DNA of 64,000 nucleotides, from NCBI GenBank assembly GCA_018818205.1, contig JAHISJ010000006.1:41817-105816 (forward strand), in the 5' to 3' direction. The notes beneath the pieces were generated by a model, which was given only the letters and a program-made list of their open reading frames with translations, ran no database searches and was not told where the DNA came from. Positions 3,141 to 64,000 of this stretch are shown piece after piece (the first letter of the stretch is position 1; each line of letters begins with the position of its first letter). The position numbers were made by a program, and so were the translations under genes. This stretch comes from Patescibacteria group bacterium. Lineage in GTDB: Bacteria > Patescibacteriota > JABMPQ01 > JAHIRA01.

Positions 3141-3170
3141 AAAGCGCCTGAAGGGCGCTTTGTTTGTTTG
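3141..3170 (+). terminator. intrinsic terminator after rplK (AAAGCGCC-tgaa-GGGCGCTT + T-rich)
   Basis: perfect GC hairpin followed by TTGTTTGTTTG; unexpectedly separates rplK from downstream genes. Confidence 0.6.
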
Positions 3171-3756
3171 TAAAACGTTTTATATGTTTATCTCCTGGGC
3201 AAAAAAGAAGACTGACAAGCAAATTCCTCGAAAATCGTTTAGAGTGCTCTATTCATGGGGATTTACGCCAAATCGACTGACATTTTTGTCAGCAGTTTTT
3301 AAAGTACTTGCTGGGTACTTTTTTTATACTGGTATGTTTATGTGGGGAGGGTTTGCCATTATTTTTGACTATTTTTTTGATTTTCTTGACGGTGGTATTG
3401 CAAGACATTTAAATAAAACAACAAAGCGTGGGGCTATTTATGATTTTTTAGCGGATAGGGTTTTAAGAGAAGGATGGATAATTGCGCTGGCGTTTGGTGG
3501 ATGGATATCATTTGAACTTGCGCTTATAGTGGTGCTTGTTGATGCGTTTTCATACTTTTTCCATGACTACGCTGAGCTTAACAAGCTTAAGCAAATCGAT
3601 TGGCTTCCGGCAAATCATAAATTTGTTGTCTATGGTGCTTTTTTAGGACACATGCCCTTATTTTTAATGATTGGTATAGTGGTTAATGCAATTTTTACGG
3701 TTACAAACGTTGTTTCGCTTATTGTTTTGAATAAGGAGGAGAGAGACAAAGAATAG
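3160..3756 (+). CDS. CDP-alcohol phosphatidyltransferase family protein
   Basis: 198 aa polytopic membrane protein; motif DFLDGGIARHLNKTTKRGAIYDFLADRV matches D-G-x2-A-R-x8-G-x3-D-x3-D signature of CDP-alcohol phosphatidyltransferases; exact start uncertain (3160 or 3184). Confidence 0.7.
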   Translation: MFVCKTFYMFISWAKKKTDKQIPRKSFRVLYSWGFTPNRLTFLSAVFKVLAGYFFYTGMFMWGGFAIIFDYFFDFLDGGIARHLNKTTKRGAIYDFLADRVLREGWIIALAFGGWISFELALIVVLVDAFSYFFHDYAELNKLKQIDWLPANHKFVVYGAFLGHMPLFLMIGIVVNAIFTVTNVVSLIVLNKEERDKE

Positions 3757-5945: not shown

Positions 5946-6557
5946 ATGAATAATCTTCAAGACCAAGAAGAATATCCGGGGAACCTTATTGTTCTCTACG
6001 GGGTAAACAACTGCGGAAAAACAACTCAAGCCAACATGCTTGTTGAATCTGTACAGGAGCTTGGGTATGATGCAGAGCATTTAAAGTACCCGATTTATGA
6101 CATCAACCCAAGTGGTGAGTATATCAATGAGGTTTTGCGTAAAGGAAAAAAAGTTTCGCCAAAAGAATTGCAGCTCTGGTATGCGCTTAATCGGCATCAA
6201 TATGAAGAACAATTGTTTAAAAAGCTACAAGAGGGCATTGTGGTCATTGCAGAAGACTATATAGGCACTGGCATTGCATGGGGGATGGCACATGGGGTTC
6301 CCAAGGAGACGTTAAGAGAAATAAATAAGGACTTATATCCCGAGGATCTAGGGATATTGCTTCGAGGTGCACGTTACACCGATGCGGTCGAGAAGGGGCA
6401 TTTGCACGAGGAAGATGATGAACTCGTGGAGCGATGCACAGAGATTCATAATGAATTGGCGGCGCAGTATGGCTGGGTACCAATAAATGCCGCTCAAGAG
6501 AAAGAGAACGTGCATAAAGACATTATGCGCGTCGTTGATCCATTTTTAGATCTATAA
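5946..6557 (+). CDS. tmk: thymidylate kinase-like P-loop kinase
   Basis: 203 aa; P-loop LYGVNNCGKTTQ, DRY-like region EDYIGTGIAWG, lid/LID-like region; sits next to dut (dUTP->dUMP->dTMP->dTDP logic). Confidence 0.55.
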   Translation: MNNLQDQEEYPGNLIVLYGVNNCGKTTQANMLVESVQELGYDAEHLKYPIYDINPSGEYINEVLRKGKKVSPKELQLWYALNRHQYEEQLFKKLQEGIVVIAEDYIGTGIAWGMAHGVPKETLREINKDLYPEDLGILLRGARYTDAVEKGHLHEEDDELVERCTEIHNELAAQYGWVPINAAQEKENVHKDIMRVVDPFLDL

Positions 6558-22863: not shown

Positions 22864-24009
22864 CTATTTGACGAGAATTTCAATATTGCTGTCGCTTGAG
22901 GGCACTTTGGTTACCCAAAAAGGAGAGTAGGCGATGTCTACTGAGTCTACTTCCGGGAACTGTTTGTAGTAGGCAACCAAGTCGCCGTAATTTCTGCCTT
23001 GCAGCGGTGCTTTCTCGAATGCTTTTGACGGGATTTTGTTTATTGTTGCGGCTGATGCAGAGATGGTGACAATGGCACTTCTTTTTTCTTCGTCAATAGA
23101 GGCAAGTGAGTAGGATAAATCATCAGTGTTGAAGGATATTATTTCTTTTGCTTCGCTTATTTGTTTTTGGATTTTTTCTTCAGCGATTGTCTTCATTTGG
23201 GCTGTGTTGAAGGATACAAGAGTCAATTTTATTTTTTCTGTTACCTCAAACGCAGGGGTAATATCATCCTCTTTTACTTTTGGTGTAGCGTTAATAATTT
23301 CATAGTGTGTAGTTTTGGGGACGATAATTTCACTTGGAGGGAGCGTTTCTTTGATTTTGGCAATCTCTTCTTGGATGATTTGCGTTGCCACGTCTTCTTT
23401 AGCCTTCTCGATCGTCTCTGCAGTAACCACAAAGTCTTCAACACGTCCTCCGGTCATGGGAGTGTTGCTTTCTGCATAGATTAACTCTTGCCAGTTTGCC
23501 CAGAGCTTAACGATGACAAAATGTGTTGGCGCCACGTTGCCTTGTGCGCCTTTTTCTGCTGCGGTAACGGGAATATCAATTTTTCCTTTTGCGGGTACTT
23601 GTGCCCATGTATCAATTTTGAAAAGAACGCCACTATCACTTAGTAGTTGTGTTTTTTGCTTGAGTGGCTGAGGTTCGCTTCTGTTGTTGTAGATAGTGAC
23701 CGTTCCTTTTGCATACGAATCGACCTCCTTTTTTTCTACCGCATCAAACGTTTTGGTAGCGTCGATTGTTTTTTCAATAATTTGTCCTTTTACCGCATTG
23801 AACGCGGTGAGGTTTCCATCGGCGTCAGGGGAGATGGTGACATTGAGTGACGCATTGGTTGTATCTTCTTTTGGGTGAAGTGTTATTTCTGCTTTTGATA
23901 TGGTTGTATGTATTACAAAAGCGATAAGTACCAGCGATGCAATGATAAATAGGATAAGGTAGGGCTTATAGGAGGGGCCTTGTTTTATTTTTCCAAGATC
24001 AACACTCAT
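22864..24009 (-). CDS. hypothetical membrane-anchored (N-in, C-out) protein
   Basis: 381 aa; single N-terminal TM (YLILFIIASLVLIAFVI), large T/K/E-rich extracytoplasmic domain; 4-nt overlap with upstream HExxH gene. Confidence 0.5.
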   Translation of the reverse strand: MSVDLGKIKQGPSYKPYLILFIIASLVLIAFVIHTTISKAEITLHPKEDTTNASLNVTISPDADGNLTAFNAVKGQIIEKTIDATKTFDAVEKKEVDSYAKGTVTIYNNRSEPQPLKQKTQLLSDSGVLFKIDTWAQVPAKGKIDIPVTAAEKGAQGNVAPTHFVIVKLWANWQELIYAESNTPMTGGRVEDFVVTAETIEKAKEDVATQIIQEEIAKIKETLPPSEIIVPKTTHYEIINATPKVKEDDITPAFEVTEKIKLTLVSFNTAQMKTIAEEKIQKQISEAKEIISFNTDDLSYSLASIDEEKRSAIVTISASAATINKIPSKAFEKAPLQGRNYGDLVAYYKQFPEVDSVDIAYSPFWVTKVPSSDSNIEILVK

Positions 24010-24503
24010 CTAAGATAGCGTGAAAGTTTAGATACAATTTGGGAGAGGGGATCACGGTTAACGTATACGCGTCTTCTCCTTTGAATGTGGTAACCGTTTT
24101 TTTGAAGGTAGCTTTGCCAGTTGTCTTTGATCCACTTTTTTGATTTTGTGTGGAGTTCTAGTAGACCACGAGCCTCAAACTCTCTGCGCATTATACCATG
24201 CTTGTGTGGGTACTCATAGGATTTTTTAAGTGGGGAGCTAAAGCCGTGTGCATAGTGAATAAATTCATGGACAATAGTTTCTTCAACAACATAGGAGGGG
24301 ACTTTGGGATCTTTAAACAACCCCGATATGGTAATGAGGGTTGATTTGTCTGGAAGCATTTTGATTGATCCGAGCTGTCTTTTAGCTTTTTTGCCAAAGC
24401 GAATAGTAATAGCGTTTTTAATGGGGACATCACAAAAGTGATTTTCTGTATAGTGGGCGAGTGCGTTTTCTAAGTCAGCGTTGGCTCTCATATTGTTTCT
24501 CAA
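24006..24503 (-). CDS. SprT-like/DUF45-like zinc metallopeptidase-fold protein (HExxH)
   Basis: 165 aa; VHEFIHYAHG HExxH motif preceded by beta-rich region as in SprT/WLM/DUF45 minimal metallopeptidases. Confidence 0.5.
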   Translation of the reverse strand: MRNNMRANADLENALAHYTENHFCDVPIKNAITIRFGKKAKRQLGSIKMLPDKSTLITISGLFKDPKVPSYVVEETIVHEFIHYAHGFSSPLKKSYEYPHKHGIMRREFEARGLLELHTKSKKWIKDNWQSYLQKNGYHIQRRRRVYVNRDPLSQIVSKLSRYLR

Positions 24504-24538
24504 AAAAAAGATGGCCGCAGAAAAAAAATTTCCTTGGC

Positions 24539-24814
24539 CTAAGCAGCAGCAGCCTGGTCGGCGGCTGGCTTTTGTATAATATGCGCTTGAGGAGCGGGAA
24601 CAAAATCAAACTTTGTGTTCAATGTGACGTTTTGGTTACTCGTAATGTACCAACTGGCGCCTTGCCCAGTTGGAAAGGCCCAAACTGGTCCGGCAGGATG
24701 TTCGCCAAATTTTTGGGTTAATTCCATCAATTGTAATCGCTTTTTAAGCCGCATAAGCTTTGCGGCAGCATGGTTTTGCATGGGTCCCTCCGTATTTGAG
24801 ATGCTTGTAGACAT
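24539..24814 (-). CDS. small hypothetical protein (weak call)
   Basis: 91 aa ORF, weak RBS (GGAA); competes with antisense ORF 24461..24721; no family recognised. Confidence 0.25.
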   Translation of the reverse strand: MSTSISNTEGPMQNHAAAKLMRLKKRLQLMELTQKFGEHPAGPVWAFPTGQGASWYITSNQNVTLNTKFDFVPAPQAHIIQKPAADQAAAA

Positions 24815-24876: not shown

Positions 24877-26904
24877 TTATCTTTGATCTTCACTATAAAC
24901 GACTTTTTTCATTTCTTCTTCTACATCTTTTCCTCCGATTACTACTTGATCGCGTCCGGAAACCTTAGCTTTTTTAAGTGCAACGTTTGCTCTTTCAAAC
25001 ATTTTTTTGGTGGTTGGTTCATTTTTTTCATCTCTGTACCCCTTGATATCTGCAAGACCCATTGAAGCAGTTACTTTTTTTGTGGTTTCTTCATCTACAG
25101 AAAACTTTGTAGCACGCAATACCTCCATAAATCTCTCTTCAATACGTTCCTTGGCACGTTTTGCATCCATACCTGGCAGGAGAATAACAAATTCCTCACC
25201 ACCTTGTCTTCCGGGAGTACCGTTTACGTGGTGTCGTCTTCCGGAGCCTACCACATCTAAATCTCCGCGTTTTCTTCTTTGATCTTCGCCGTTAAATTCT
25301 CCTTCATCTGTCCTAAAAATTTCCTTAAGAATTCTTCCAAGTTGTCTTAATACTTTATCACCGACTTTATGACCATATGCGTCGTTTAAATCTTTAAAAT
25401 GGTCTAGGTCAAGAATAGCTATTGTTAGATTTTCTCCGCTTTTAGCTGTCTTGTAGAAGAGCTTGTGGAATTCTTTTCCGATAATCTCACGGTTTTTAAG
25501 TCCGGTAAGTGAATCGGTGTTTGCCTTTTCACCAAATATGTACGCTTCTACCTCGGCAAATTGAGCATATTGCCACCATATTTTTTCTGTTCCAGAAATA
25601 GCCATTTCATCATTTTGCAGTCTTTCTGAAATTTCTTTTTCCAATTTAGACACTTCCGGAAACTCTCCGTAATCAAGGGGGTCTTGAACCAGTTCAGCAA
25701 AATCTAGCAAGTCAGCCCCACTTAATGCGAGCTCTGGATTGGGTTCAATGTCTTTCTTTTTTTCGATTTGTTCCTTGATTTCAGTTGATGTAACAAAGGT
25801 TCGTGGTTCTTGAAATGTTTCAAACTCTCCAGATTCTCTTGCGGTTTTTAGGACGAGGTCTTCTTTTTTTCTTTTTGTAAGCTCCACTTTACGTCTTCTT
25901 TGTACATCATCCGAGTATATTCTTGAGCCATCACCAAATTCACGTTTACCATCTTCTGCTTCAAATCCATGTTTTTTAACGTCAACGGCGGCTTGTTCTG
26001 CTTCATCTAAAAGGTGTTCAGCATTGTCTTTGGGCGTCAAGTTTTCTTGGACACGTAGTACGGTAATGCCTGCGCTTGCAGTGACCCCAACACTGTCAAC
26101 TGTCTCTTCACCTTCGCTATTTAGTATTTTTTCGGTTGCAAAGATGTGTTTTGGAAGCTCTTTAACATTTTCAGTTTGTCTTTTTAGCGTGGTATCTATG
26201 GTTCTAATAGCTTCGAGTACTTGTTCCGCTCTATTTTGAAGCATACGTTCCAAATTTTCTTCAGCTTGTTTTTTTTCGTCTGGAGAAAAATCGTTTTCAG
26301 TAAAAATAAAGACGAGTTCCTCGCCTCTATCGTGCTTTCTTGCTGCCATACCGGTTCCCTCAAATGCTCTACAGATTTGTCCAACGTGTCTCAGCACATC
26401 ATCACCACCGCTATAACCATATACCTCGTTAAAGAGCTTGAACTTATCAATATCAATATGAATTGCACCCATCTTTGAGCCTTTTCTAATTTCAGAAATC
26501 ATGTATTCTCTAAGTGCGCCGTCTCGTTTAAGCTGGGTAAGGCCATCTACCGTAAGAGCAAACTGTTCAGCACGACCCTCCGCGCGGTTAACCGCAGCGA
26601 CTGCTTTTGCAATAGTTATTCTTTTTTCTATGGATTCTGAATCTTCCCCTGGAATAGTTTTTAAAAAAGCGCTACGGATTTCTCTGGCACTGCTTCCTTG
26701 TTCTTGTAGCGCGTTAAATTGTTCTAGGTGGTCAGTATTTTGTTCTTTGTCGAGCGTACGAATTGCGTCCTCTCTGTCCTCAATTTCTGCAAGTCGTTCA
26801 AGTTGTGTAACAACATGGACTTTGTGTAGCTCAGTAGGAGTTTCTACTTTCTCCATCTCAGAAATCGATTGAAACATTCTTTCTTTTTTTGAATTTTCAG
26901 CCAT
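24877..26904 (-). CDS. tandem GGDEF-domain protein: N-terminal degenerate GGDEF-like domain (RGEEL) + C-terminal diguanylate cyclase domain (GGEEF)
   Basis: 675 aa soluble protein; domain 1 ~aa130-300 with DIDKFKLFNEVYGYSGGDDVL...RGEELVFIF; domain 2 ~aa470-620 with DLDHFKDLNDAYGHKVGDKVL...RQGGEEFVILLPG and an R/K-rich insertion. Confidence 0.8.
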   Translation of the reverse strand: MAENSKKERMFQSISEMEKVETPTELHKVHVVTQLERLAEIEDREDAIRTLDKEQNTDHLEQFNALQEQGSSAREIRSAFLKTIPGEDSESIEKRITIAKAVAAVNRAEGRAEQFALTVDGLTQLKRDGALREYMISEIRKGSKMGAIHIDIDKFKLFNEVYGYSGGDDVLRHVGQICRAFEGTGMAARKHDRGEELVFIFTENDFSPDEKKQAEENLERMLQNRAEQVLEAIRTIDTTLKRQTENVKELPKHIFATEKILNSEGEETVDSVGVTASAGITVLRVQENLTPKDNAEHLLDEAEQAAVDVKKHGFEAEDGKREFGDGSRIYSDDVQRRRKVELTKRKKEDLVLKTARESGEFETFQEPRTFVTSTEIKEQIEKKKDIEPNPELALSGADLLDFAELVQDPLDYGEFPEVSKLEKEISERLQNDEMAISGTEKIWWQYAQFAEVEAYIFGEKANTDSLTGLKNREIIGKEFHKLFYKTAKSGENLTIAILDLDHFKDLNDAYGHKVGDKVLRQLGRILKEIFRTDEGEFNGEDQRRKRGDLDVVGSGRRHHVNGTPGRQGGEEFVILLPGMDAKRAKERIEERFMEVLRATKFSVDEETTKKVTASMGLADIKGYRDEKNEPTTKKMFERANVALKKAKVSGRDQVVIGGKDVEEEMKKVVYSEDQR

Positions 26905-39295: not shown

Positions 39296-41344
39296 ATGGC
39301 GGTATCTAAAATTGTTAAAATTGATTTAATTTCGCTTAAGAAGCACGAGGGTAAGATACTCGATTTTCTTCATAACACCGGTTTTGTCCAAATTATTGAC
39401 AAACAGCGGATGGAAGGAGAGGAAGTGGCACGTGAAGAAAAGGAAGATTTTGAGAGAAGAGCCTTGGACGTTGATTATGTGCTTTCTGTACTTGGGCCCT
39501 ATGCAAAAAAAGAAAAAGTAAGTCTGGCTGACAAAGTGGCGCTTGGCGGAAAGATTAAACTCACCACAAAAGAGTATGAGGATGTGGTGCTTAATTATGA
39601 CTACAAATCGGTTGTCTCATCAGTCAAAAAAGTTGAATCACACATTCAATTTATATCCGAAACAAACAGTTCGCTTATAGAAGAGCAGGAACTTCTTAAA
39701 AAATGGATTAATATTGATTTTGATCTTTCGTCTGTGAGAGAGAGTTTGCGTGGACAGCTTATTTTTGGAAAGCTCCCTAAAAAACAAGAAAACGATTTTG
39801 TAAAAAAAGTCGGTCATGAAATCTCAGAAATTGAGGTACTTACCGTTGATTCGGATGAGAGCAGCGCGTATATGCTGGTGACATTCAATAAAGAGAAACG
39901 TGGATTATTTGATGAGCATGCTTTTGAATTTGGTTTTGAAGAAGTTGACTTGCCAAGTAAGGGTGATACACCAAGAAAGCATATCGCAAGCCTTGAAAAG
40001 ACTATAAAAGAGAATACAGCCGAGATTAAGAAGCTTAAAAAAGAGCTCAAGGGTATTGCAGAAAAAGATATGCGTGCGCTTAAAGTTACGTATGACTATT
40101 TTACGTGGCAAAAAGACATGGATAATGCCCGTATTCATTTTGATTTAACCAATAAGTCGTTTCTTGTGTCGTGTTGGGTACAAAAGAGTCACTTAAGTAC
40201 TCTTAGCGAAGGACTTAAAACAATTACCACAGATTTTTATATTCAAGAAGTAAAACCAAACAAGAGTGAGAAGACTCCCGTGCTCATTGAGAACAGAAAT
40301 TTTATTAAGCCGTTTGAGACGGTAACCAAGATTTACGGACTTCCCAAGACAAACGAAGTCGACCCAACTCCATATCTTGCGCCGTTTTTTATTGTCTACT
40401 TTGCATTGTGTCTTACCGATGCAGGATATGGATTACTCCTTGCAGTCGGCACATTTCTTGCGATTAAACTCTTAAAGATTCCCAAAGAGAAGCAACGGCT
40501 GCTCAAACTGCTTATGTATGGAGGTATCATGACGTTTATTATTGGAGCACTATTTGGTGGATGGTTCGGTATTGAGTCTCAGTATTTGCCGCCTTTCTTA
40601 CAATCAATCCAAGTTATAAATCCGCTTGATGATGTTATGCTGGTTCTTGGTCTTGCCGCATCACTCGGGTTTATTCAGATTCTGGTGGGTATTTTGATTA
40701 AACTGTACTGGAGTGCTAAAAATAAGGATTATTCAAAAGAAGTGCTTATTGATGCGCTTTGGTTTGTTATTCTTCTCTCAGGTGCGCTGTGGATTCTATG
40801 TAACAGTGTATTCCATATTGCTGTTGCAGCTCAGATACTGTTGATTCTACTGCTTGCCGCGGCGTTTGTTGTGGTGTGGATATCTGGTAATAATGTTTTC
40901 AAAAATAAGATTACTGGTATTAAAGAGAAAGAGGGGAAGTCTACACGGTATTATACCTGGCTTATTCTCGGCACTATTATTGGTTTTCCCATTAGAATCC
41001 TCACGGGTATTTTGGGGCTTTACACGGTTGTTGGGTATGTGTCAGATGTGCTTTCATATTCTCGTCTCTTGGCTCTTGGCCTTGCAACGGGCATTATTGC
41101 TATGGCAATCAATATTATTGCGTTGCTCGTTAAAGATATGGTACCGTATGCGGGATATGTACTGATGATTTTGGTACTGGTTGGTGGGCATACGTTTAAT
41201 ATTGCTATTAACGTACTGGGAGCGTATATCCATTCCGGTCGTTTGCAGTTTGTTGAGTTTTTCCCTAAATTTCTTGAAGGTGGTGGTGAAGTCTTTATTC
41301 CGTTTGAAAGAAAAGGAAAATATATTGAACTTACTGCAAAGTAG
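39296..41344 (+). CDS. ntpI: A/V-type ATPase subunit I (a-subunit)
   Basis: 682 aa; hydrophilic N-terminal half, ~7-8 TM C-terminal half; start MAVSKIVKIDLISLKKHEGKILDFLHNTGFVQII typical. Confidence 0.85.
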   Translation: MAVSKIVKIDLISLKKHEGKILDFLHNTGFVQIIDKQRMEGEEVAREEKEDFERRALDVDYVLSVLGPYAKKEKVSLADKVALGGKIKLTTKEYEDVVLNYDYKSVVSSVKKVESHIQFISETNSSLIEEQELLKKWINIDFDLSSVRESLRGQLIFGKLPKKQENDFVKKVGHEISEIEVLTVDSDESSAYMLVTFNKEKRGLFDEHAFEFGFEEVDLPSKGDTPRKHIASLEKTIKENTAEIKKLKKELKGIAEKDMRALKVTYDYFTWQKDMDNARIHFDLTNKSFLVSCWVQKSHLSTLSEGLKTITTDFYIQEVKPNKSEKTPVLIENRNFIKPFETVTKIYGLPKTNEVDPTPYLAPFFIVYFALCLTDAGYGLLLAVGTFLAIKLLKIPKEKQRLLKLLMYGGIMTFIIGALFGGWFGIESQYLPPFLQSIQVINPLDDVMLVLGLAASLGFIQILVGILIKLYWSAKNKDYSKEVLIDALWFVILLSGALWILCNSVFHIAVAAQILLILLLAAAFVVVWISGNNVFKNKITGIKEKEGKSTRYYTWLILGTIIGFPIRILTGILGLYTVVGYVSDVLSYSRLLALGLATGIIAMAINIIALLVKDMVPYAGYVLMILVLVGGHTFNIAINVLGAYIHSGRLQFVEFFPKFLEGGGEVFIPFERKGKYIELTAK

Positions 41345-41397
41345 GACTATACTTACTAAACTTAGTTTATTTATAAGTTAATTAATTAAGCAAAACG

Positions 41398-41871
41398 ATG
41401 GTAGGATTAGCATTAGCAATCGCAGGCGCAGCATTTGCTGCTATATTTGCTGGAATCGGTTCAGCAGTTGGAGTGGGAACTGCAGGACGAGCCGGCGCGG
41501 GCGTTGTGTCAGAAAAACCTGAGCTCTTTGGTAAAGTTCTTCTTTTGGAAGCACTTCCTGGAACGCAGGGTATTTATGGATTTCTTGTAGCATTTATTGT
41601 AATGCTTCAAACTGGTCTTTTAGGTGGTGAGCCAGTAGAGCTTTCTGTTGGCCAGGGACTTGTCATTTTTGCCGCATGTCTTCCTGTTGCTTTTGGGGGA
41701 TTATTTTCTGGTATTCACCAGGGTAAGGTTTCTGCAGCAGGTCTAAACATTGTTGCAAAACAGCCTGATAAATCGGGTAATGCAGTTATTCTCTCAGCTA
41801 TGGTTGAGACGTATGCACTTCTCGGTTTGGTTATCTCAATTCTTACAGTCTTATTCTTCAAATTAGATTAG
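41398..41871 (+). CDS. ntpK: A/V-type ATPase proteolipid subunit K (4-TM c-subunit)
   Basis: 157 aa duplicated hairpin; PGTQGIYGF in TM2 and METYALLG (Glu) in TM4. Confidence 0.85.
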   Translation: MVGLALAIAGAAFAAIFAGIGSAVGVGTAGRAGAGVVSEKPELFGKVLLLEALPGTQGIYGFLVAFIVMLQTGLLGGEPVELSVGQGLVIFAACLPVAFGGLFSGIHQGKVSAAGLNIVAKQPDKSGNAVILSAMVETYALLGLVISILTVLFFKLD

Positions 41872-41879
41872 GAATAACG

Positions 41880-42443
41880 ATGGCATTAGACGACATAATC
41901 ACATCAATTGACAAAGAGAACAAGAAAGAGATTGCAAAACTGCAAAAGGAAGCAGACAATCGTGCAAAGGATATTCAGGTAGAAACTGACGCTAAGAAGA
42001 AAGAGCTTCACAGCGTGATTTTGGAAGAAGTCACCAAAGAAGCAGAAACCTTTGTTGCACAGGCTGAGTATGCCCTGAGAATGAAGCAAAAGAATGCTCT
42101 CTTGCAAAAAAAGCAAGCACTTATCACCGAGGCATATGATAAGGCGCTTTTGAAGCTCAAAGATCTTGATGACGCTCAGTATGGTGATATTGTTTCACGT
42201 CTCCTTAAGGAAATGGGTACGGGTGATTTTGAGATTGTTCCTGCAAAAGGAAGGGAAGATATCACCAAAAGGGCAGTGGAAGCTGCGGGAAAGGGATATA
42301 CAGTGAGCAGTGAGACAATAGAGGCAGTAGGCGGGTTTAAAGCAGTATCAAAGGACGTAGAAATAGACAACACCTTTGGATCATTGCTTGAATCCATGAA
42401 GGATGACCTTGACGTTACTGTTTCTGAAACTCTCTTTACTTAA
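41880..42443 (+). CDS. ntpE: A/V-type ATPase subunit E
   Basis: 187 aa, N-terminal long helix (K/E/A-rich) + C-terminal globular domain; operon position. Confidence 0.7.
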   Translation: MALDDIITSIDKENKKEIAKLQKEADNRAKDIQVETDAKKKELHSVILEEVTKEAETFVAQAEYALRMKQKNALLQKKQALITEAYDKALLKLKDLDDAQYGDIVSRLLKEMGTGDFEIVPAKGREDITKRAVEAAGKGYTVSSETIEAVGGFKAVSKDVEIDNTFGSLLESMKDDLDVTVSETLFT

Positions 42444-42459
42444 GTTTTCTCTATAACTA

Positions 42460-43482
42460 GTGAAATCATCAATGAAAAGTACTGCTGACTACATTTTGGC
42501 CACTGGTCGTATTAGGGTGCTCGAGAAGGATCTTATTACTTCTGATGCGTTAACTCGTATGATTGAAGCACGAGACGAAGAAGAGGCTTTTAAGGTTTTG
42601 AGTGAGTTCGATTATTCTGACGAGCTTTTAAAGGAAAGTAATCCTGAAAAATACGAACAGGTGCTTGCACACGATATGATGCAGACGAGGCAGTTTGTTA
42701 AGGAAGTTGTGGATGACGAACGTGTTTTGAATTGGCTCTTTTCTGAGCATGATTTTCACAATGCAAAATGCATGTTTAAGCAGAAGTTTTTTGAGGAAGA
42801 TCTCTCCAGTTACATATCAAAGCTTGGAAATGTGGATGTAGAAAAACTACGAGAAGCTATTGTGGATGAGTCAGATTCGCTGCCTGAGGGGGAATTTAAA
42901 ACGATTATTCAAGATGCTCAAGAGTTTTTCTCTACTGATGAGACAAAACACCCTGAGCGAGTGGATGCGTATCTTGATCAGCAGTACTATGGGTATCTTC
43001 TCATGACTGCAAAAGAACTTAATGACGAATTTGTGCTTAATCTCACCAAGAAGCGCATTGATCTTGCAAATAGTAAACTCATGGTACGAGGGAAAGAGCT
43101 CGAGAAGGACTTTGCGTTTATTGAAGAGCGTTTTATTGATGGGGGAACCTTAAACGTAGATCTGTATCGTTCCAGATTTGAAGATGAGAGTAATGAAACG
43201 TTTTTGCTTGAAGTGTCACATATCTTTGTATCACCGATTGTTGAAGAGTATATCAAACAGGCACTTGAAACTGGTTCATACTACTTACTAGAGAAAGCAT
43301 TTGAGGTTTTTGAGGCAAGCATTGCTAGTGAAGGAAAGAAGGAAGCGTTTGGCTTAGAGGTACTTCTTGCGTACGTTCTTGCTAAAAAGATTGCCAACAT
43401 GAACATCAGGAAAGTAATGGTCGGAAAGATTAACGGCATTCCAAAAGAACAGATTCTTGATAGAATAATTGAGTTTGCTTAA
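42460..43482 (+). CDS. ntpC: A/V-type ATPase subunit C (d-subunit)
   Basis: 340 aa helical protein at the C position of the operon. Confidence 0.7.
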   Translation: MKSSMKSTADYILATGRIRVLEKDLITSDALTRMIEARDEEEAFKVLSEFDYSDELLKESNPEKYEQVLAHDMMQTRQFVKEVVDDERVLNWLFSEHDFHNAKCMFKQKFFEEDLSSYISKLGNVDVEKLREAIVDESDSLPEGEFKTIIQDAQEFFSTDETKHPERVDAYLDQQYYGYLLMTAKELNDEFVLNLTKKRIDLANSKLMVRGKELEKDFAFIEERFIDGGTLNVDLYRSRFEDESNETFLLEVSHIFVSPIVEEYIKQALETGSYYLLEKAFEVFEASIASEGKKEAFGLEVLLAYVLAKKIANMNIRKVMVGKINGIPKEQILDRIIEFA

Positions 43483-43487
43483 AACCA

Positions 43488-43811
43488 ATGAAGACGTATC
43501 ACATTGCTATTTTAGGATCAAAAGACGCTATTTTAGGGTTTAAAGCTATTGGCGTAAAACCGGTATCTGTCACGTCCAAGACAGAGATGCTTGAGAAGCT
43601 CGAGAAGCTTTGTGATTCCGGAGAGTATGCCGTTTTGTTGATTACTGAAGACTTTTTTGCGCAGGGCAAAGATGAGGTATTTGAGTTAAGTAAGAGACCA
43701 CTTCCTGCAATTATCCCCATTCCGTCACACAGGGGAAGTGAAGGTCTTGGTCAAGAAAAGATCAAGCGTATTGTTGAGCAAGCTGTTGGTAGTGATATTT
43801 TAGATAAGTAA
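43488..43811 (+). CDS. ntpF: A/V-type ATPase subunit F
   Basis: 107 aa; MKTYHIAILGSKDAILGFKAIGVKPV Rossmann-like start typical of subunit F. Confidence 0.75.
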   Translation: MKTYHIAILGSKDAILGFKAIGVKPVSVTSKTEMLEKLEKLCDSGEYAVLLITEDFFAQGKDEVFELSKRPLPAIIPIPSHRGSEGLGQEKIKRIVEQAVGSDILDK

Positions 43812-43931
43812 TTCGCTTAAGGTGGGCTTATCCCACGTTGCGTGAATAATTTCTAATGTTCGATTTTCAATACGGTTTAGAGGAAGGTTTTGGAAATTGA
43901 ACATTAGCAATTGAAAATTAAATAATGTGTT

Positions 43932-45704
43932 ATGTCTGAAGAAAACAATAACGTTCACGGTACTATTGTTAAAGTCTCTGGTCCACTAGTTGTTGCCAAG
44001 GGGATGAATGGTGCAAGAATGTTTGATGTGGTTAAGGTTTCTGATAAAAAACTGACCGGTGAAATCATTGAACTTGCAGGTGATACCGCTTCTATTCAGG
44101 TCTATGAGGAGACTTCAGGTATTGGTGCTGGAGAGCCAGTATACTCAACGGGTATTCCGCTGTCTGTAGAACTTGCTCCAGGTCTTATTTCATCCATTTA
44201 CGATGGTATCCAAAGACCGCTTAACCTTCTTAAAGAAGTTGCAGGTGATTATATTACTCGTGGAATCGAGGTCCCAGGCATTGATCATGAAAAAAAATGG
44301 ACATTTAAACCACTAGTGAGTGTTGGTGACGAGGTTTTCTCGGGTGATTTCCTTGGTGAAGTAGAAGAGACGGTAACGGTTCTGCACAAGGTCATGGTGC
44401 CGGTTGGTACTCAAGGCAAGGTGAAGGATATTAAAGAGGGTGATTTTAACGTTACTGATACAATCGCTGTTATTGAAACAGAAGATGGCGACAAGGAAGT
44501 CGCTATGCTTCAAAAGTGGCCGATTCGCGATCCGCGCCCGGTTAAAGAAAAACTGGTGCCAAAAGAGCCGCTTATTACCGGACAGCGTGTTATTGATACA
44601 TTTTTCCCCATTGTAAAAGGTGGTGCGGGTTGTGTACCGGGACCGTTTGGTGCAGGAAAAACAGTTATTCAACATCAACTTGCTAAGTGGGCAGATGCAG
44701 ATATTGTGGTTTTTATTGGCTGTGGTGAACGTGGAAATGAGATGACCGATGTGCTTATGGAGTTTCCGGAGCTTAAAGATCCACGGTCGGGTGAACCACT
44801 TATGAAGAGAACAGTGCTTATTGCAAATACGTCAAATATGCCGGTTGCTGCCCGTGAGGCATCTATTTATACCGGTATTACCATTGCTGAATACTACAGG
44901 GACATGGGATTTAAAGTAGCACTTATGGCTGATTCAACATCACGTTGGGCAGAGGCACTGAGAGAAGTCTCCGGACGCCTTGCCGAAATGCCGGGTGAAG
45001 AAGGGTATCCCGCATACCTTGGTTCAAGAACAGCAAGTTTTTATGAACGAGCCGGTAAAGTCGAATGTCTTTCAAGCAAGGGGAGAGAAGGCTCGCTTAC
45101 GGTTGTTGGTGCGGTGTCTCCTCCTGGTGGTGACCTTTCTGAACCGGTTACGCAAAATACGCTTCGGGTTACCAAAGTATTTTGGGGGCTTGATGCAGCG
45201 CTTGCTTATAAGCGACACTTTCCCGCAATTAACTGGCTTACGAGTTACTCACTCTATTTAGATGATATTAAAGGATATCTAGCAAAAGAGGCAGGTGAGG
45301 ACTTTCCGGATCTTCAATCAGAAGCTATGAAGATTTTGCAGCACGAGGCTGAACTTGAAGAAATAGTCCGATTGGTGGGTATTGATGCATTGTCACCAAA
45401 AGAACAGTTGGTACTTAACACGGCAAAGTCAATTAGGGAGGATTTTCTCCATCAAAACGCCTTTGATGATGTAGACACCTATTCATCAATCAAGAAGCAG
45501 TACCTCATGATGAAAGCCATCTTAACGTTTCACAATAAAGGTGTAGATGTGCTTGAGAAGGGCGCGGATCTTAAGGATCTGTTAAAACTTCCGGTCCTAG
45601 AAAAGATTGGTCGAAGTAAAATGACGCCAGAAGATAAACTTGATGAACTCGAAGCTATGGTTGCCAAAGCAGCATCTGAGCCAGAGAGCGTCACATTGAA
45701 ATAA
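43932..45704 (+). CDS. ntpA: A/V-type ATPase catalytic subunit A
   Basis: 590 aa; Walker A GPFGAGKT, non-homologous region insert, Walker B. Confidence 0.95.
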
Positions 45705-45760
45705 TGTATTTTTGGGCGCGGATGACGCGTGAATGCACATAATTAGCTAATTTACGTAGT

Positions 45761-47212
45761 ATGCTTAAAGAATATAAAACAGTCAAAGAGATCACCGGAC
45801 CGCTCGTTATAGTTGAAGGCGTGTCTGACGTGAAATATGAGGAGCTCGTTGACATTGAGCTTCAAGACGGATCAAAAAGAAGAGGCCGGGTACTTGAGGT
45901 AGATGGGGACAAAGCGGTTATTCAGCTTTTTGAGGAAACCCGTGGTATTTCTGTAGAGGGTACTAAAGCAAAGTTTCTTGGTAAAACAATGGAGCTTCCC
46001 GTTTCTGAAGAGATGCTTGGCCGCGTTTTTGATGGTTCAGGAAGACCAAAAGATAAGGGACCAAAAATAATTCCTGAAAAGAAACTCGATATTAATGGTG
46101 CTCCGCTTAATCCGTATGCTCGTGATTATCCAAATGACTTTATTCAGACCGGTGTTTCAACCATTGATGGTATGAACACGTTGGTTCGTGGCCAAAAGCT
46201 TCCTATCTTTTCCGGTTCCGGACTTCCGCATGCAGAGCTTGCTGCAATGATTGCACGGCAAGCAAAGGTAACAAAACCGGGAGAAAAAGACGGTGACGGA
46301 GGAGAATTTGCAGTGGTGTTTGGTGCTATGGGAATTACCTTTGCTGAATCGGAATTCTTTATCAATGAATTTAGGAAAACAGGTGCTATTGAGCGCGCAA
46401 CTCTCTTTGTAAACTTGGCAGATGATCCGGTAGTTGAGCGAATCATTCTTCCTCGTCTTGCGCTTACTGCCGCTGAGTATCTTGCGTTTGAAAAGGGAAT
46501 GCACGTACTGGTTATTTTGACTGATCTCACCAATTACTGTGAGGCACTCAGAGAAGTGAGTGCGGCGCGTAAAGAGGTACCGGGAAGACGTGGATATCCT
46601 GGTTATTTGTATACTGATCTTGCTACGCTGTATGAGCGAGCTGGTCGTATTAAAGGAAAGCCGGGTTCGATTACGCAGATTCCTATTCTCTCCATGCCAG
46701 AAGATGATAAAACGCATCCAATCCCAGATCTTACCGGATATATTACTGAAGGACAGATTATGCTTTCTCGCGAACTGCACAATAAAGGCATTTTCCCTCC
46801 GATTGATGTGCTTCCATCTCTTTCTCGTCTAAAAGATAAGGGTATTGGTGAAGGAAAGACGAGAGAAGATCATTCCGGTGTGTTGAATCAGTTATTTGCT
46901 GCATATGCTCGGGGAAAAGATGCAAAAGAACTTGCCGTTATTCTTGGCGAGGCTGCACTTTCTGATGCAGACAAAAAATTTGCAAAATTTGCCGATGAAT
47001 TTGAGAATCGATTTGTCAGACAGAAATCAGATGAAGATAGATCAATTATCGAGACACTGACATTGGGCTGGGAGCTTATGTCAATTCTCCCAGAATCTGA
47101 GCTTAAGCGTGTAAAAGAAGAGCAGATAAAGAAGTATCTTCCGAGTGCTAAAAAAGAGGAAAAGAAGATAGAGAAGGTTGAGGAAGAAGAGAAAGAAAAG
47201 GAGCTCGTCTAG
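45761..47212 (+). CDS. ntpB: A/V-type ATPase subunit B
   Basis: 483 aa; regulatory B-subunit signature [18 protein letters not shown]-rich C-terminal tail. Confidence 0.95.
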
Positions 47213-47224
47213 AAGAATTTTTTA

Positions 47225-47333
47225 CTGTCATCCCGGAATTTCACTTCTGAGTGAAACATCCGGGATCTCGTGGCTTACAGACTGTAAGCGATAAGACTCC
47301 GGTTCAGTCTTAGGAAAGACTGTCCGGAATGAC
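47225..47333. mobile_element. MITE-like element copy 2 (109 bp; TIRs TGTCATCCCGGA / TCCGGAATGACA)
   Basis: same TIRs and central module CCGGGATCTCGTGGCTTACAGACT as copy 1, hairpin modules (CACTTCTGAGTG; CAGTCTTAGGAAAGACTG) in swapped positions; sits between ATPase B and D genes. Confidence 0.6.
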
Positions 47334-47351
47334 ACCTAACGCATTACTACC

Positions 47352-47969
47352 ATGGCTAAACTTAACGTCAATCCGACTCGCATGGAGCTTCTTAAGCTCA
47401 AAAAGCGAGCTAAGACAGCAACAAGGGGGCATAAGCTTCTCAAAGAAAAACGTGATGGGCTCATGAAGAGCTTCATGTCGATTATTAGAGAAGCAAAAGA
47501 TCTTCGCTCTACAGTTGAGCGTGATCTTGGCGAGGCGTTTAAGAATTTTATGTTTGCATCGGCATCAATGAAAACCGAGGCGCTTAACGAGTCGCTTGCT
47601 GTTCCTAGTCAAAAAATGAAACTTGAAGCGTCGACTAAGAACGTTATGAGTGTTAATATCCCTGAGTTTAAGTCGTCAGTTGAGGGTGATTTTGTGTGTT
47701 ACAGTTTAGCTTCTACAAGTGTAGAGCTTGATGGTTCGCTCAAAACATTTTCTCATGTGTTAAGTGATATTATTAGACTTGCCGAAATAGAGCACTCTGC
47801 GTATCTTTTGGCGTGTGAAATCGAAAAAACAAGAAGACGGGTAAATGCGCTTGAACATGTTATGATCCCGAATATGGAAGAAACGGTGAAGTATATCACC
47901 ATGAAGCTTTCTGAGCAAGAACGAGCAGCTATTACGAGCATTATGGCCATCAAAGATAGACTTGGTTAG
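47352..47969 (+). CDS. ntpD: A/V-type ATPase subunit D
   Basis: 205 aa; MAKLNVNPTRMELLKLKKR canonical subunit D N-terminus. Confidence 0.85.
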   Translation: MAKLNVNPTRMELLKLKKRAKTATRGHKLLKEKRDGLMKSFMSIIREAKDLRSTVERDLGEAFKNFMFASASMKTEALNESLAVPSQKMKLEASTKNVMSVNIPEFKSSVEGDFVCYSLASTSVELDGSLKTFSHVLSDIIRLAEIEHSAYLLACEIEKTRRRVNALEHVMIPNMEETVKYITMKLSEQERAAITSIMAIKDRLG

Positions 47970-62453: not shown

Positions 62454-62529
62454 GCCATCGTAGCTCAGTCGGTAGAGCGCATCCATGGTAAGGATGAGGT
62501 CACCGGTTCGATTCCGGTCGATGGCTCCA
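62454..62529 (+). tRNA. tRNA-Thr (anticodon GGU), CCA encoded
   Basis: cloverleaf: acceptor GCCATCG/CGATGGC, D-arm GCTC-AGTCGGTA-GAGC, anticodon stem CATCC/GGATG loop ATGGTAA, T-arm ACCGG-TTCGATT-CCGGT, 3' TCCA. Confidence 0.85.
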
Positions 62530-62574
62530 GTAATAGATGAGTGATTCGATATTATACTATTATTGCAGCAAAAA

Positions 62575-62619
62575 CGAGATCCCGGATATCCACTTAAGAA
62601 AGTGAATTCCAGGATGACA
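62575..62619. mobile_element. partial/rearranged copy 3 of the MITE-like element (right TIR TCCAGGATGACA + CACTTAAGAAAGTG hairpin + inverted central-module fragment)
   Basis: ACGAGATCCCGGATATCCACTTAAGAAAGTGAATTCCAGGATGACA matches right half of copy 1 and reverse complement of copy 2 central module; lacks left TIR. Confidence 0.45.
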
Positions 62620-62982
62620 GCTGGTTTTGGGGAAGAGGAAAAACATTCTAAAATCTTGCGTAGACCCCGGAGTGTAACTGAGTGGTACGTGAAAACAAGA
62701 GAATGGGCCCCCGCAAATTTCTGAATTTGTGGGGAAGAGGAGGAACACTATGGAAGTCGGAGTGGATCCCGTAGGCTTTGCGAAGGGATACACGCAGACT
62801 GGAATGATGGGCCCCCGAAAAGTTCCTACTTTTTGGGGAAGGGGAGAAACATCCTGGAAGCAGGAGTGTTGTATAAGAAAATGGAGGGGCCCCCGAGAAA
62901 TTCTGATTTCTTGGGGAAGAGGAGGAACACTATGTAAGTCGGAGCGGATCCCGAAGGCTTTGCGTAGGGATACGCGCAGACT
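62618..62982. repeat. degenerate tandem repeat array (~90-bp units alternating two subtypes; ~183-bp super-period) between tRNA-Thr and tRNA-Ser
   Basis: units beginning GGGCCCCCG...TTGGGGAAG(A/G)GGA(G/A)(G/A)AACA at 62705, 62809, 62888 plus diverged copy at ~62625; A-type units 62705-62800 and 62888-62982 ~88% identical. Confidence 0.6.
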
Positions 62983-63000
62983 TACATAGTGTTCCGACGA

Positions 63001-63091
63001 GGAGAGGTGCATGAGTGGCTTAAATGGACGGTTTGCTAAACCGTTGTACCGTGTTAAAGCGGTACCGAGGGTTCGAATCCCTCCCTCTCCG
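63001..63091 (+). tRNA. tRNA-Ser (anticodon GCU), type II with long variable arm, no encoded CCA
   Basis: acceptor GGAGAGG/CCTCTCC, anticodon stem ACGGT/ACCGT loop TTGCTAA, long variable arm, T-arm GAGGG-TTCGAAT-CCCTC. Confidence 0.85.
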
Positions 63092-63240
63092 AGGATATTT
63101 TAAATAGGAACACATCGATGTTCTTTTTTTGTGCTTAGAATAATGTCAGAAGTCAATTTCTTTGATAGAATGGATATGGACACTTTATCTTTTAAGCACC
63201 AAAGGGTTTGGAATATTCCTTGGACAATTTTTTGAAAATT

Positions 63241-64000
63241 ATGAACAATGCTAAAAAGCTATATTTAAAACAGGAATACATCTCACGAATTAATCTGGCA
63301 ATTAACTATATTGAACAGAATATTACTTCTGAATTGAACTTGGGGAATATTGCTGCCGCATCCGGATTTTCCGCATTTCATTTCCATAGAATATTTAAAG
63401 CTCTTGTGGGTGAGACACTTAATACTTTTATTAAGCGGGTTCGTGCTGAGAAAGCATCTATGATGCTTGTGTATAATCCAAAATATTCTATCACCCGTAT
63501 AGCATATATATATGGGTATTCAAGTTCTCAAACTTTTTCTCGGGCGTTTAAGGAATGCTTTAACATGAGTCCCAGTGAGTTTCGTGAAAAGGCTCAAGGA
63601 AAAAGCAAGATTTGCAACGACAAGAGCAAGAATCGAAACGACGCTTCTTTTGACCTTCGTTATGATCATAACGAAGGTCGACATATTATTACCATAAATA
63701 GAGGAAAAAAAATCAATATGAAGGTAGAAGTAAAGGATTTACCTGATATGGATGTAGCATATGTACGACATATTGGGCCGTATAAAGGAGATAGTAAGCT
63801 TTTTGAAGGACTCATTAATAAACTAACTAGTTTTGCAGGACCAAGAAATCTGTTTGGTCCAGATACAAAGTTTATGTCTCTGTATCATGATGATCCAAAA
63901 GTTACTGAAGATGCTAAGCTCAGACTCGATGTATGTATGACTGTTCCAAAAGACACAGAAGTCGATGGGGAAATAGGCAAACAAACACTTGCTGGTGGTA
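63241..64000 (+). CDS. AraC-family transcriptional regulator with GyrI-like effector-binding domain (3' end beyond window)
   Basis: not in ORF track (no stop in window); ATG 63241; HTH_AraC signature ...SGFSAFHFHRIFKALVGETLNTFIKRVRAEKA...IAYIYGYSSSQTFSRAFKECFNMSPSEFR, then GyrI-like domain (DVAYVRHIGPY...). Confidence 0.75.
   Translation, partial: MNNAKKLYLKQEYISRINLAINYIEQNITSELNLGNIAAASGFSAFHFHRIFKALVGETLNTFIKRVRAEKASMMLVYNPKYSITRIAYIYGYSSSQTFSRAFKECFNMSPSEFREKAQGKSKICNDKSKNRNDASFDLRYDHNEGRHIITINRGKKINMKVEVKDLPDMDVAYVRHIGPYKGDSKLFEGLINKLTSFAGPRNLFGPDTKFMSLYHDDPKVTEDAKLRLDVCMTVPKDTEVDGEIGKQTLAGG

Follow-up and report, generated by a model that had tools for sequence, protein, structure and literature searches.

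A structured repeat element at tRNA gene ends in a Patescibacteria lineage

Tandem remnants of decayed integrative elements are known to accrete at tRNA genes (PMC5704250), and theta ribozymes, which are like those of hepatitis delta virus (HDV), sit beside phage tRNAs (PMC10879173). A further kind of array, TIGR-Tas, is known in the candidate phyla radiation (CPR); each of its units has two variable spacers of 8-12 nt and box C/D motifs, and a Tas gene encoding a Nop domain lies adjacent (PMC12045711). The locus considered here belongs to a 125-kb Patescibacteria contig (JAHISJ010000006.1), of which a stretch of 64 kb, the window, was analysed; locus L001 adds 8.5 kb past the window end. It comprises a tRNA-Thr gene, a spacer of 471 nt and a tRNA-Ser gene, and the spacer consists of tandem copies of a non-coding, structured element of ~115 nt. 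The array is a tandem pile of this element in the tRNA-Ser leader. It is a local instance of a family that is present at most of the tRNA genes examined, not a relic specific to this locus.

The array and its family

The element is described on its G strand, the strand that bears a purine box. In order, it consists of a first hairpin (H1), the purine box, a second hairpin (H2), the sequence GACG and a single nucleotide N, after which the tRNA follows. H1 is a GC-clamped 11-bp hairpin (GGGGCCCCCG...UGGGG). The box (GGGGAAGAGGAGGAACA) is unpaired and has the form A(A/G)(A/G)AGGAGGAACA, while H2 is a hairpin of ~72 nt with conserved purine-rich internal loops. The two tRNA genes and the units between them are as follows.

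62454..62529, + strand: tRNA-Thr (GGT), CCA encoded; ARAGORN, and Rfam tRNA at 69.9 bits
62578..62702, + strand: U0, degenerate distal unit; weak nhmmer match at 62625-62672
62703..62810, + strand: U1; covariance model R1, 104.6 bits
62807..62884, + strand: U2; nhmmer match at 62809-62868, E 1e-13
62885..63000, + strand: U3, full-length element; covariance model R1, 129.9 bits, E 9e-30
63001..63091, + strand: tRNA-Ser (GCT), CCA not encoded; ARAGORN and Rfam

A preliminary description of this locus had placed about five tandem units of ~90 bp between two tRNA genes. The tRNA genes are as it stated, both on the + strand and 471 nt apart; instead of five units, however, there are three clear ones and one that is degenerate, with box-to-box spacings of 102, 104 and 78 nt. 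It had also pointed to a repeated Shine-Dalgarno (SD)-like box followed by ATG, which is borne out. The box GGGGAAGAGGAGGAACAC is exact at 62731 and 62913 and is found with 3 mismatches at 62629 and 62835, giving four matches versus 0.01 expected, and the motif occurs nowhere else in the window. Three of the boxes have an 11-bp H1 upstream, whose stems differ among copies by compensatory changes, and two have the long hairpin H2 downstream.

In U3, H1 spans 62890-62916, the box 62913-62930 and H2 62924-62995, and the tail GACGA (62996-63000) abuts tRNA-Ser. Its H2 corresponds to an inverted repeat that had been reported as 17 bp long, perfect and abutting tRNA-Ser. The perfect 17 nt are real; nevertheless, they are only the outer part of arms of 29 nt that are 90% complementary (62924-62952 and 62967-62995), the start had been placed off by 2, and the hairpin ends 5 nt (GACGA) before the tRNA gene. 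The other units are less complete. U1 has H1 at 62708-62734, the box at 62731-62748 and an H2 (62742-62808) without its terminal ~8 nt and the GACG tail, and in U2, where H1 is at 62812-62838 and a box variant at 62835-62852, H2 is shortened to a small hairpin at 62848-62870. U0 begins with a differing hairpin (62578-62618), followed by the box variant GGGGAAGAGGAAAAACAT at 62629-62646; its linker, AAAACAAGAGAAT, is common to one copy on another contig (L145, see below). A fragment of a miniature inverted-repeat transposable element (MITE) had also been reported here. It has no support, as the hairpin at 62578-62618 occurs a single time in the window. Tandem Repeats Finder reported no repeat in the array. 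On both strands, the spacer has a better fold than shuffled sequence (z -5.3 and -7.3).

With nhmmer and the covariance model, 19 strong copies (102-132 bits) were found on the window contig, on L145 and on a contig of a relative, L007. L145 is a second contig of the same sample, reached through a protein match (P0122) to an open reading frame (ORF) on the minus strand of the array. It is probably from the same genome, since its tetranucleotide correlation with the window (r 0.966) is as high as that between the window's own segments. Two tRNA clusters on L145 are interleaved with the element, and 11 of the 12 tRNAs on this contig have at least one copy, one of them on both sides. Neither tRNA-Thr of the window nor one tRNA-Arg of L145 has a copy.

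The geometry of these copies is strict. All 14 full-length copies terminate within 0-2 nt of a tRNA end, and their polarity is fixed: those in the sense orientation lie at tRNA 5' ends (Ser in the window; Val, Gly, Gly and Leu on L145; Ser on L007), and those in the antisense orientation at 3' ends (Tyr on the window contig; Arg, Ala, Lys, Val, Leu, Val, Phe and Cys on L145). The copy at tRNA-Tyr is 5.3 kb past tRNA-Ser, on the same contig and outside the window. In antisense copies, N and the discriminator base are complementary. Within this Patescibacteria lineage, the tail of the element always points to a tRNA gene and stops 1 nt from the acceptor stem. Truncated copies are found only in tandem and distal to a full copy, as U0-U2 are to U3. 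On L145, three copies match exactly over about 85 nt yet have different H1 variants, and H1 and H2 variants reassort among copies. This may be read as recent copying or gene conversion, and in that sense it would speak for the propagation discussed below. A gene for a Xer-type tyrosine recombinase (L145 7604-8542), probably the chromosomal XerC/D, is found 1.2 kb upstream of the first element-rich tRNA cluster.

The fold is supported by covariation. RNAalifold, run on an alignment of 16 copies, predicts 35 pairs, with compensatory changes in 23 of them. The proportion of paired cells is 96% versus 84% in shuffles, none of 500 shuffles reaches the former value, and sliding the 3' partners by 1-3 columns lowers it to 33-48%. 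Variation is larger in paired columns (0.291) than in unpaired ones (0.237); the box, the GGA-rich internal loops, the apical G.AGGCUUUGCG.AGG and the GACG tail are all less variable than the stems. On the G strand there are 33 G.U cells (in 16 columns) versus 5 A.C cells, and the ratio is 14:1 both in tRNA-sense and in antisense copies. Because this wobble bias is the same in both orientations, it is the G strand, rather than the strand co-transcribed with the tRNA, that appears to be structurally constrained, although the asymmetry is moderate evidence since it is partly inherited among copies.

The same alignment bears on whether the units encode small basic peptides, as had been proposed. 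Two ORFs cross the array.

62750..62989, + strand: 79-codon ORF that reads through U1-U3; judged non-coding
62560..63012, - strand: 150-aa ORF, annotated as a gene by the source assembly; judged spurious

The features that invite a coding reading do exist: in U1 and U3 a strong SD is ideally spaced before an ATG, U1 opens the 79-codon ORF (after GAGGAGGAACACTATG, start 62750, end 62989), and the other box copy is followed by ATGTAA at 62932. Across the family, however, neither start nor frame is conserved. ATG follows the box in 9 of the 16 copies, the remaining seven having CTG or GTG, or ACT in one gap-misaligned copy, and this codon is part of the H2 stem, where its partner bases covary with compensatory changes. 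Diversity per codon position is 0.318, 0.271 and 0.206, so that the third position is the least variable and shows no excess. The units are also mutually out of frame (104-nt spacing), the end of the GAGGAGGAACACTATG ORF depends on its context, and the reading frame of U3 stops at once. As for the 150-aa ORF, it starts inside tRNA-Ser; a protein search with it returned only itself, and an exhaustive search of representatives added one 180-aa 'protein' on L145, which is also an ORF laid over elements and tRNAs and no real homologue. A composite six-frame peptide query had no match. By these sequence measures the element is without coding signal, and a peptide-encoding role is extremely improbable. 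For annotation this means that gene callers lay ORFs over elements, and two such 'proteins' are in public databases.

Relatives, neighbouring genes and members outside the lineage

Members outside the lineage were obtained from one metagenome pattern scan and two viral scans and were scored with the covariance model. They score 17-39 bits, whereas ~85 control loci with the box only and 5 with H1 and box only stay below 16 bits. A scan of genome contigs with TGGGGAAGRGGARRAACAY was too loose, as it gave at least 118 single matches, mostly in coding sequence and due to chance; among the genome-scan matches listed, only L063 later proved real by the covariance model. Viral scans with H1-based patterns gave chance matches only. 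In three human-gut loci (L135, L137 and L140; 39 bits), the element is antisense and 1 nt from the 3' end of tRNA-Asp, within a Gly-Val-Asp-Phe-Gly cluster, and H2 has been rewritten among the three but its pairing is kept.

Other members lie in or beside mobile DNA. In five viral contigs (L155, L156, L159, L161 and L162), a duplicated tRNA 3' fragment, CCA included, directly adjoins the GACG tail, beside a tyrosine integrase. These contigs have tandem duplicated blocks (L156 2580-3010), each made of the tRNA 3' fragment and a terminator-like 63-nt repeat; the module directly follows CCA in one block and not in the other, and both are beside a prophage-type integrase. From their sequence, the blocks are a possible filled/empty pair whose boundaries are not clean. 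In L063, a metagenome-assembled genome of Christensenellaceae (JAZQWW010000162), the tail adjoins a duplicate (80 nt, 99% identical) of the 3' half of tRNA-Pro and its terminator. At 6011-6356 of that locus, the att-like repeat encloses only ~150 nt, with the H1-box-H2 module as the sole recognisable content, which looks like a miniature att-flanked insert. In the Clostridial elements L141 and L146, the module is between a MobA/MobL relaxase gene and the nick-like sequence TAAGTGCGCCCT / TAATTGCGCCCT, on the same strand as this MobQ-type sequence and just 5' of it. The stretch that contains the nick-like sequence of L141 matches about 1000 plasmids, nearly all typed as mobilizable. Further copies are in one region like an integrative and conjugative element (ICE) and in one phage intergenic region. 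Across phyla, neither AGGA in the box nor GACG at the terminus varies and H1 is GC-clamped, while the sequence of H2 is free. The spacer of the window (62530-63000) contains no TGCGCCC, no AAGTGCG and no relaxase.

Among relatives, listed here with their pyrH identity, the interval after tRNA-Thr varies.

L003 and L004, pyrH 72%: tRNA-Thr, a gene for a 23S rRNA intervening sequence (IVS) protein (PF05635), tRNA-Ser
L007, pyrH 69%: tRNA-Thr, 7.3 kb of genes, one diverged element, tRNA-Ser
L148 and L149, pyrH 62%: tRNA-Thr (GGT), tRNA-Tyr and tRNA-Thr (TGT) adjacent; element absent
L150, pyrH 55%: arrangement as in L148 and L149; element absent

In L003 the element is absent at tRNA-Ser, but ~16 nt that resemble its tail (GGTTATTCCACGACGT) remain. 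The PF05635 gene of L003 (12414-12878, 124 aa) is bracketed by a 31-nt, 84%-complementary inverted repeat, and the locus resembles an IVS cassette placed between tRNAs rather than inside 23S rRNA.

Given this variation, a 5.25-kb block between tRNA-Ser and tRNA-Tyr is lineage-specific. The block (window 63092 to about 68342; L001 11498-16748) contains genes for an AraC/GyrI regulator, DUF5320, DUF134, a C15 pyroglutamyl peptidase, an SBF transporter and a CMD-like protein. The preliminary description had regarded the locus as the possible edge of an acquired island, and part of this stands, loosely taken: the interval does vary among relatives, the block with the AraC gene is specific to the lineage, and members elsewhere are in integrative and mobilizable elements. 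The marks of an island are absent, however. Neither the window nor the 8.5 kb that follow contain an integrase, relaxase or transposase, and a Pfam scan of 50 window ORFs for transposase, relaxase, integrase and reverse transcriptase found none. No repeat of at least 13 nt from any end of tRNA-Thr, tRNA-Ser or tRNA-Tyr, the 3' end of tRNA-Ser included, exists within 72 kb. The expected deviation in GC or k-mer content did not appear either (GC 0.375 versus 0.405; tetranucleotide r 0.93, inside the window's own range).

In this island view, the array would be the decayed end of one or more integrative elements accreted at a tRNA hotspot, as is described for cis-mobilizable elements (CIMEs), with the AraC/GyrI gene in an acquired island. 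Such tandem accretion at tRNA genes is on record (PMC5704250), the gene content after tRNA-Thr differs among relatives, with Thr and Tyr adjacent in the distant ones, and in Clostridia and viral contigs the module is found at att-like tRNA duplications and in elements that bear integrases or relaxases. By contrast, at least 60 kb upstream and 8.5 kb downstream are free of integrase genes, and neither a direct repeat of a tRNA end nor a compositional deviation is present. In addition, independent island decay cannot give the observed pattern, because the element is placed with 1-nt precision at 11 of 12 tRNAs of L145, at both 5' and 3' ends. For the array, this view is therefore improbable and, judged from these sequence comparisons, largely refuted.

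The stop codon of an upstream gene for a TPR protein is 1 nt ahead of tRNA-Thr, and two features follow tRNA-Ser.

63107..63130, + strand: weak terminator-like hairpin GGAACACATCGATGTTC followed by T7; read from the sequence
63208..64000, + strand: regulator of 330 aa with AraC-HTH and GyrI-like/Cass2 domains, cut by the window end; context, outside the element

The regulator is thus of the type first described. Given the position of the TPR stop codon and the hairpin with T7 after tRNA-Ser, tRNA-Thr, the spacer and tRNA-Ser look like one transcription unit, whose transcript the hairpin would terminate. A promoter and terminator consensus scan did not call this hairpin and showed nothing over background in the array. 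The stem of the hairpin repeats GGAACA/TGTTC, the base of H2, and it may be a remnant of an antisense copy on the 3' side of tRNA-Ser. In a Logan assembly of the same organism (L002), the contig stops 37 nt past the TPR gene, within tRNA-Thr and just before the array, which suggests that the repeats break short-read assemblies; contigs can be expected to end at elements.

Elsewhere in the window, genes for a CDP-archaeol-synthase-like protein (CarS-like, PF01864) and a CDP-alcohol phosphatidyltransferase (2051-2605 and 3160-3756) are interleaved with nusG, rplK and rplA. At 39296-47969 lies an operon for a V/A-type ATPase that is complete (subunits I, c, E, C, F, A, B and D). At 24877-26904 there is a gene for a 675-aa protein in which a GGDEF domain matches in three stretches, and three ORFs after it (22864-24814) have no Pfam match.

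How the element may have spread

The reading that we tentatively prefer is that of a copy-propagating element, selfish or near-neutral, whose active form is the single-stranded G strand. It is based on the near-identical copies, the reassortment of H1 and H2, the truncated tandem copies in distal position, the relatives without the element and the kin in mobile DNA. The active form would be the G strand folded as a single strand, more likely single-stranded DNA (ssDNA) than RNA. New copies would be placed at the outer edge of the tRNA cloverleaf or would survive only there. Viewed from the G strand, the 5' end of a tRNA resembles the complement of a 3' end, each being N followed by a strand of the acceptor stem. 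As both ends present this same arrangement, one rule could explain sense placement at 5' ends and antisense placement at 3' ends. Repeated placement at one tRNA would push older copies outward and so produce arrays.

RNase P and RNase Z remove the leaders and trailers of pre-tRNAs. Copies would thus be tolerated, as they would be transcribed within a pre-tRNA leader, spacer or trailer and then cut off by these enzymes, so that tRNA ends are proposed to be harmless sites. The kin in Clostridial integrative and mobilizable elements and in phage-like contigs suggest that the element may have originated in mobile DNA. A more specific version is doubtful. In it, the target recognised would be the folded tRNA cloverleaf (sense or mirror strand, as ssDNA or RNA) and not a sequence; the element, itself non-autonomous, would place itself 1 nt outside the acceptor stem, be kin of the MobQ- and att-side Clostridial module and be moved by a HUH-type or recombinase enzyme.

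Several observations weigh against propagation. In about 95 kb there is no transposase, HUH enzyme, relaxase or extra recombinase, the only recombinase being the Xer-like gene. The element has no terminal inverted repeats and no target-site duplications, and no cleanly bounded pair of empty and filled sites was found. Both orientations occur within a few kb (4 kb) in regions of uniform GC skew, which disfavours an ssDNA mechanism tied strictly to the lagging strand, as in IS200/IS605. The patterns that recovered the Clostridial and viral members had been built from the element, and these members score just 17-39 bits. The wobble asymmetry amounts to 16 versus 5 events at the level of columns rather than 33 versus 5. 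Finally, structure is retained in the copy beside the orthologous tRNA-Ser of L007 despite a pyrH identity of 69%, which could reflect selection at the level of the host and not selfish persistence.

This last point leads to a different explanation, in which the element is a pre-tRNA module that benefits the host and its stable hairpin, 5 nt from the mature tRNA end, guides or protects processing. Since H2 is palindromic, such a module would work in either orientation, and the exact spacing to the tRNA end on the 5' and 3' sides alike would fit, as would the presence of elements inside apparent polycistronic tRNA operons with no room for promoters of their own. On L145, leader and trailer of tRNA-Val (TAC), which is flanked on both sides, could pair and lengthen the acceptor stem, and the 31-nt inverted repeat between the same two tRNAs in L003 suggests that long stems are tolerated or used there. 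The hairpin could be a barrier to RNase J or 3' exonucleases, or a site for RNase III, and H1 with the SD-like box could, by analogy, act as a 5' stabiliser of the STAB-SD type. Nevertheless, the wobble bias follows one DNA strand, and antisense copies are not adapted on the strand that is transcribed with the tRNA. In addition, close and distant relatives manage without the element, as do tRNA-Thr of the window and one tRNA-Arg of L145, and related modules are found at non-tRNA sites in mobile elements. The tandem truncated copies and the conserved H1 and box also lack an obvious role on the 3' side. For these reasons, a host module seems unlikely.

The strand specificity of the fold can also be read as the mark of a small-RNA gene on the G strand, with RNase P generating its 3' end at the cloverleaf of the adjacent tRNA or mirror tRNA, in the manner of tRNA-linked snoRNAs or MALAT1-mascRNA. 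The unpaired purine box conserved between two stable hairpins is consistent with this, and so is the junction, where on the G strand GACG-N invariably leads into one strand of an acceptor stem. The RNA would expose AGGAGG/GGA motifs that titrate 30S subunits or a GGA-binding protein, and the four-unit array would be a multivalent sponge; the array has 24 GGA on its + strand versus 13 expected, and 8 on its - strand. However, antisense copies would need promoters that fire into tRNA operons, in one case from only 22 nt between H1 and the neighbouring tRNA, no consistent -10/-35 was seen, and in Clostridial elements the G strand is sometimes antisense to flanking genes. Such a gene is therefore quite unlikely.

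If copy propagation is true, tRNA gene borders in at least one Patescibacteria lineage would be systematically held by one structured element with a fixed geometry. Mobile or repeated DNA would then be using tRNA genes, in a bacterium, as a safe haven at nucleotide precision; to our knowledge, such havens have so far been described mainly for eukaryotic retrotransposons, which insert some distance off. The presence of the module beside att cores and MobQ nick regions of the origin of transfer (oriT) in gut Clostridia would further link conjugative and integrative DNA processing to tRNA-flank repeats, a link that is testable, and a covariance model is now available for a census of the element.

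Comparison with known systems

A limited full-text literature search found no description of the element. With Rfam 15, cmscan returned only tRNAs and chance matches (E up to 10 on the window locus and L145, up to 1 on L137/L141 and L156), and blastn of the array against plasmids and phages had no match. Some identities can be set aside. The signal recognition particle (SRP) RNA, 6S RNA, tmRNA and RNase P RNA gave no Rfam match, nor did HDV-like or hammerhead ribozymes, for which no P1 pairing from the junction is present. H2 is tRNA-sized, but it has no features of T or D arms and ARAGORN is silent, which argues against a tRNA pseudogene; integron attC sites have R' and R'' cores that are absent here. 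A fold-back inverted duplication around a tRNA was also rejected, as the -1 base is not complementary to the discriminator base at the doubly flanked tRNA. A MITE does not fit because the left end (GGGGCCCCC hairpin) is unrelated to the right end (GUUCCGACG) and no duplication flanks the 14 full copies.

Among arrays, those of CRISPR or of type III toxin-antitoxin (ToxI-like) repeats were rejected, since the 78-116-nt units diverge throughout and are followed by a tRNA and a terminator-like hairpin and not by a gene. A TIGR-Tas array was rejected as well: the neighbours are a TPR protein and an AraC regulator, and the units contain no spacers, given that their loops are conserved and their stems covary. 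Theta ribozymes and tRNA-linked snoRNAs, which RNase Z/P process, are similar in that a structured element against a tRNA end couples the processing of both. In contrast to theta ribozymes, the element has no match to an Rfam ribozyme and no HDV-like P1 pairing from the junction, and it is found on both sides of tRNAs in opposite orientations.

The likeness to CIMEs (PMC5704250) consists in tandem remnants beside tRNA genes and in Clostridial and viral kin beside att-type duplications, integrases and MobQ relaxases. The window, however, has no att direct repeats in the 72 kb covered, and the element is also at tRNA 5' ends and at most tRNAs; att-like repeats do flank the distant kin L063 (80 nt) and L156. 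To the oriT of MobQ plasmids (RSF1010-type), the resemblance is in L141 and L146, where the module lies between the relaxase gene and the nick sequence on the TAAGTGCGCCCT strand. The consensus of the nick region, (T)AAGTGCGCCCT, with an inverted repeat and an adjacent MobA/MobL gene, is beside the module in these two elements, whereas the window copies have neither nick-like sequence nor relaxase. Single-strand origins of rolling-circle plasmids and ICEs have a strand-specific fold whose structure is conserved while its sequence is variable. The element likewise has a strand-specific conserved fold with variable sequence, but the hallmarks RSB and CS-6 were not identified in the module.

Elements derived from IS200/IS605 or mobilised by HUH enzymes (IS91/Helitron-like) share several traits with it. 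They have distinct subterminal hairpins, here H1 and H2, in place of terminal inverted repeats, they do not duplicate their target, one of their ends is joined to a specific target and, between hairpin and junction, there is a short conserved sequence, here GACG. The strand-specific fold (G.U to A.C 33:5) agrees with the IS200/IS605 pattern. By contrast, what flanks the element is a structure and not a sequence: there is no constant target tetra- or pentanucleotide, and the flanks share only the character of a tRNA end. Orientation is not tied to replication, with both orientations within 4 kb under uniform GC skew, and no Y1, Y2 or Rep gene was found.

Repetitive extragenic palindromes and bacterial interspersed mosaic elements (REP/BIME), as well as BOX repeats, are alike in that they are short, non-coding, hairpin-forming and modular, with a variable number and combination of units. 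They too form intergenic tandem clusters, are co-transcribed with their neighbours and have copies that are homogenised within a genome. Typical REP features are missing, however, since GTAG is absent from the feet of the element hairpins and no Y1 transposase of the RAYT (TnpA_REP) kind is present among the 50 window ORFs or the called genes of L001 and L145. The palindromic copies, at least 19 strong ones in about 95 kb, are only at tRNA ends, with none in other intergenic regions of the window. Unlike REP/BIME and BOX, the element is bound to tRNA ends with fixed polarity and 1-nt spacing, and it has kin in another phylum and in mobile elements. We rate it as an interspersed structured repeat, whose distinctive property is its strict polar abutment to the ends of tRNAs.

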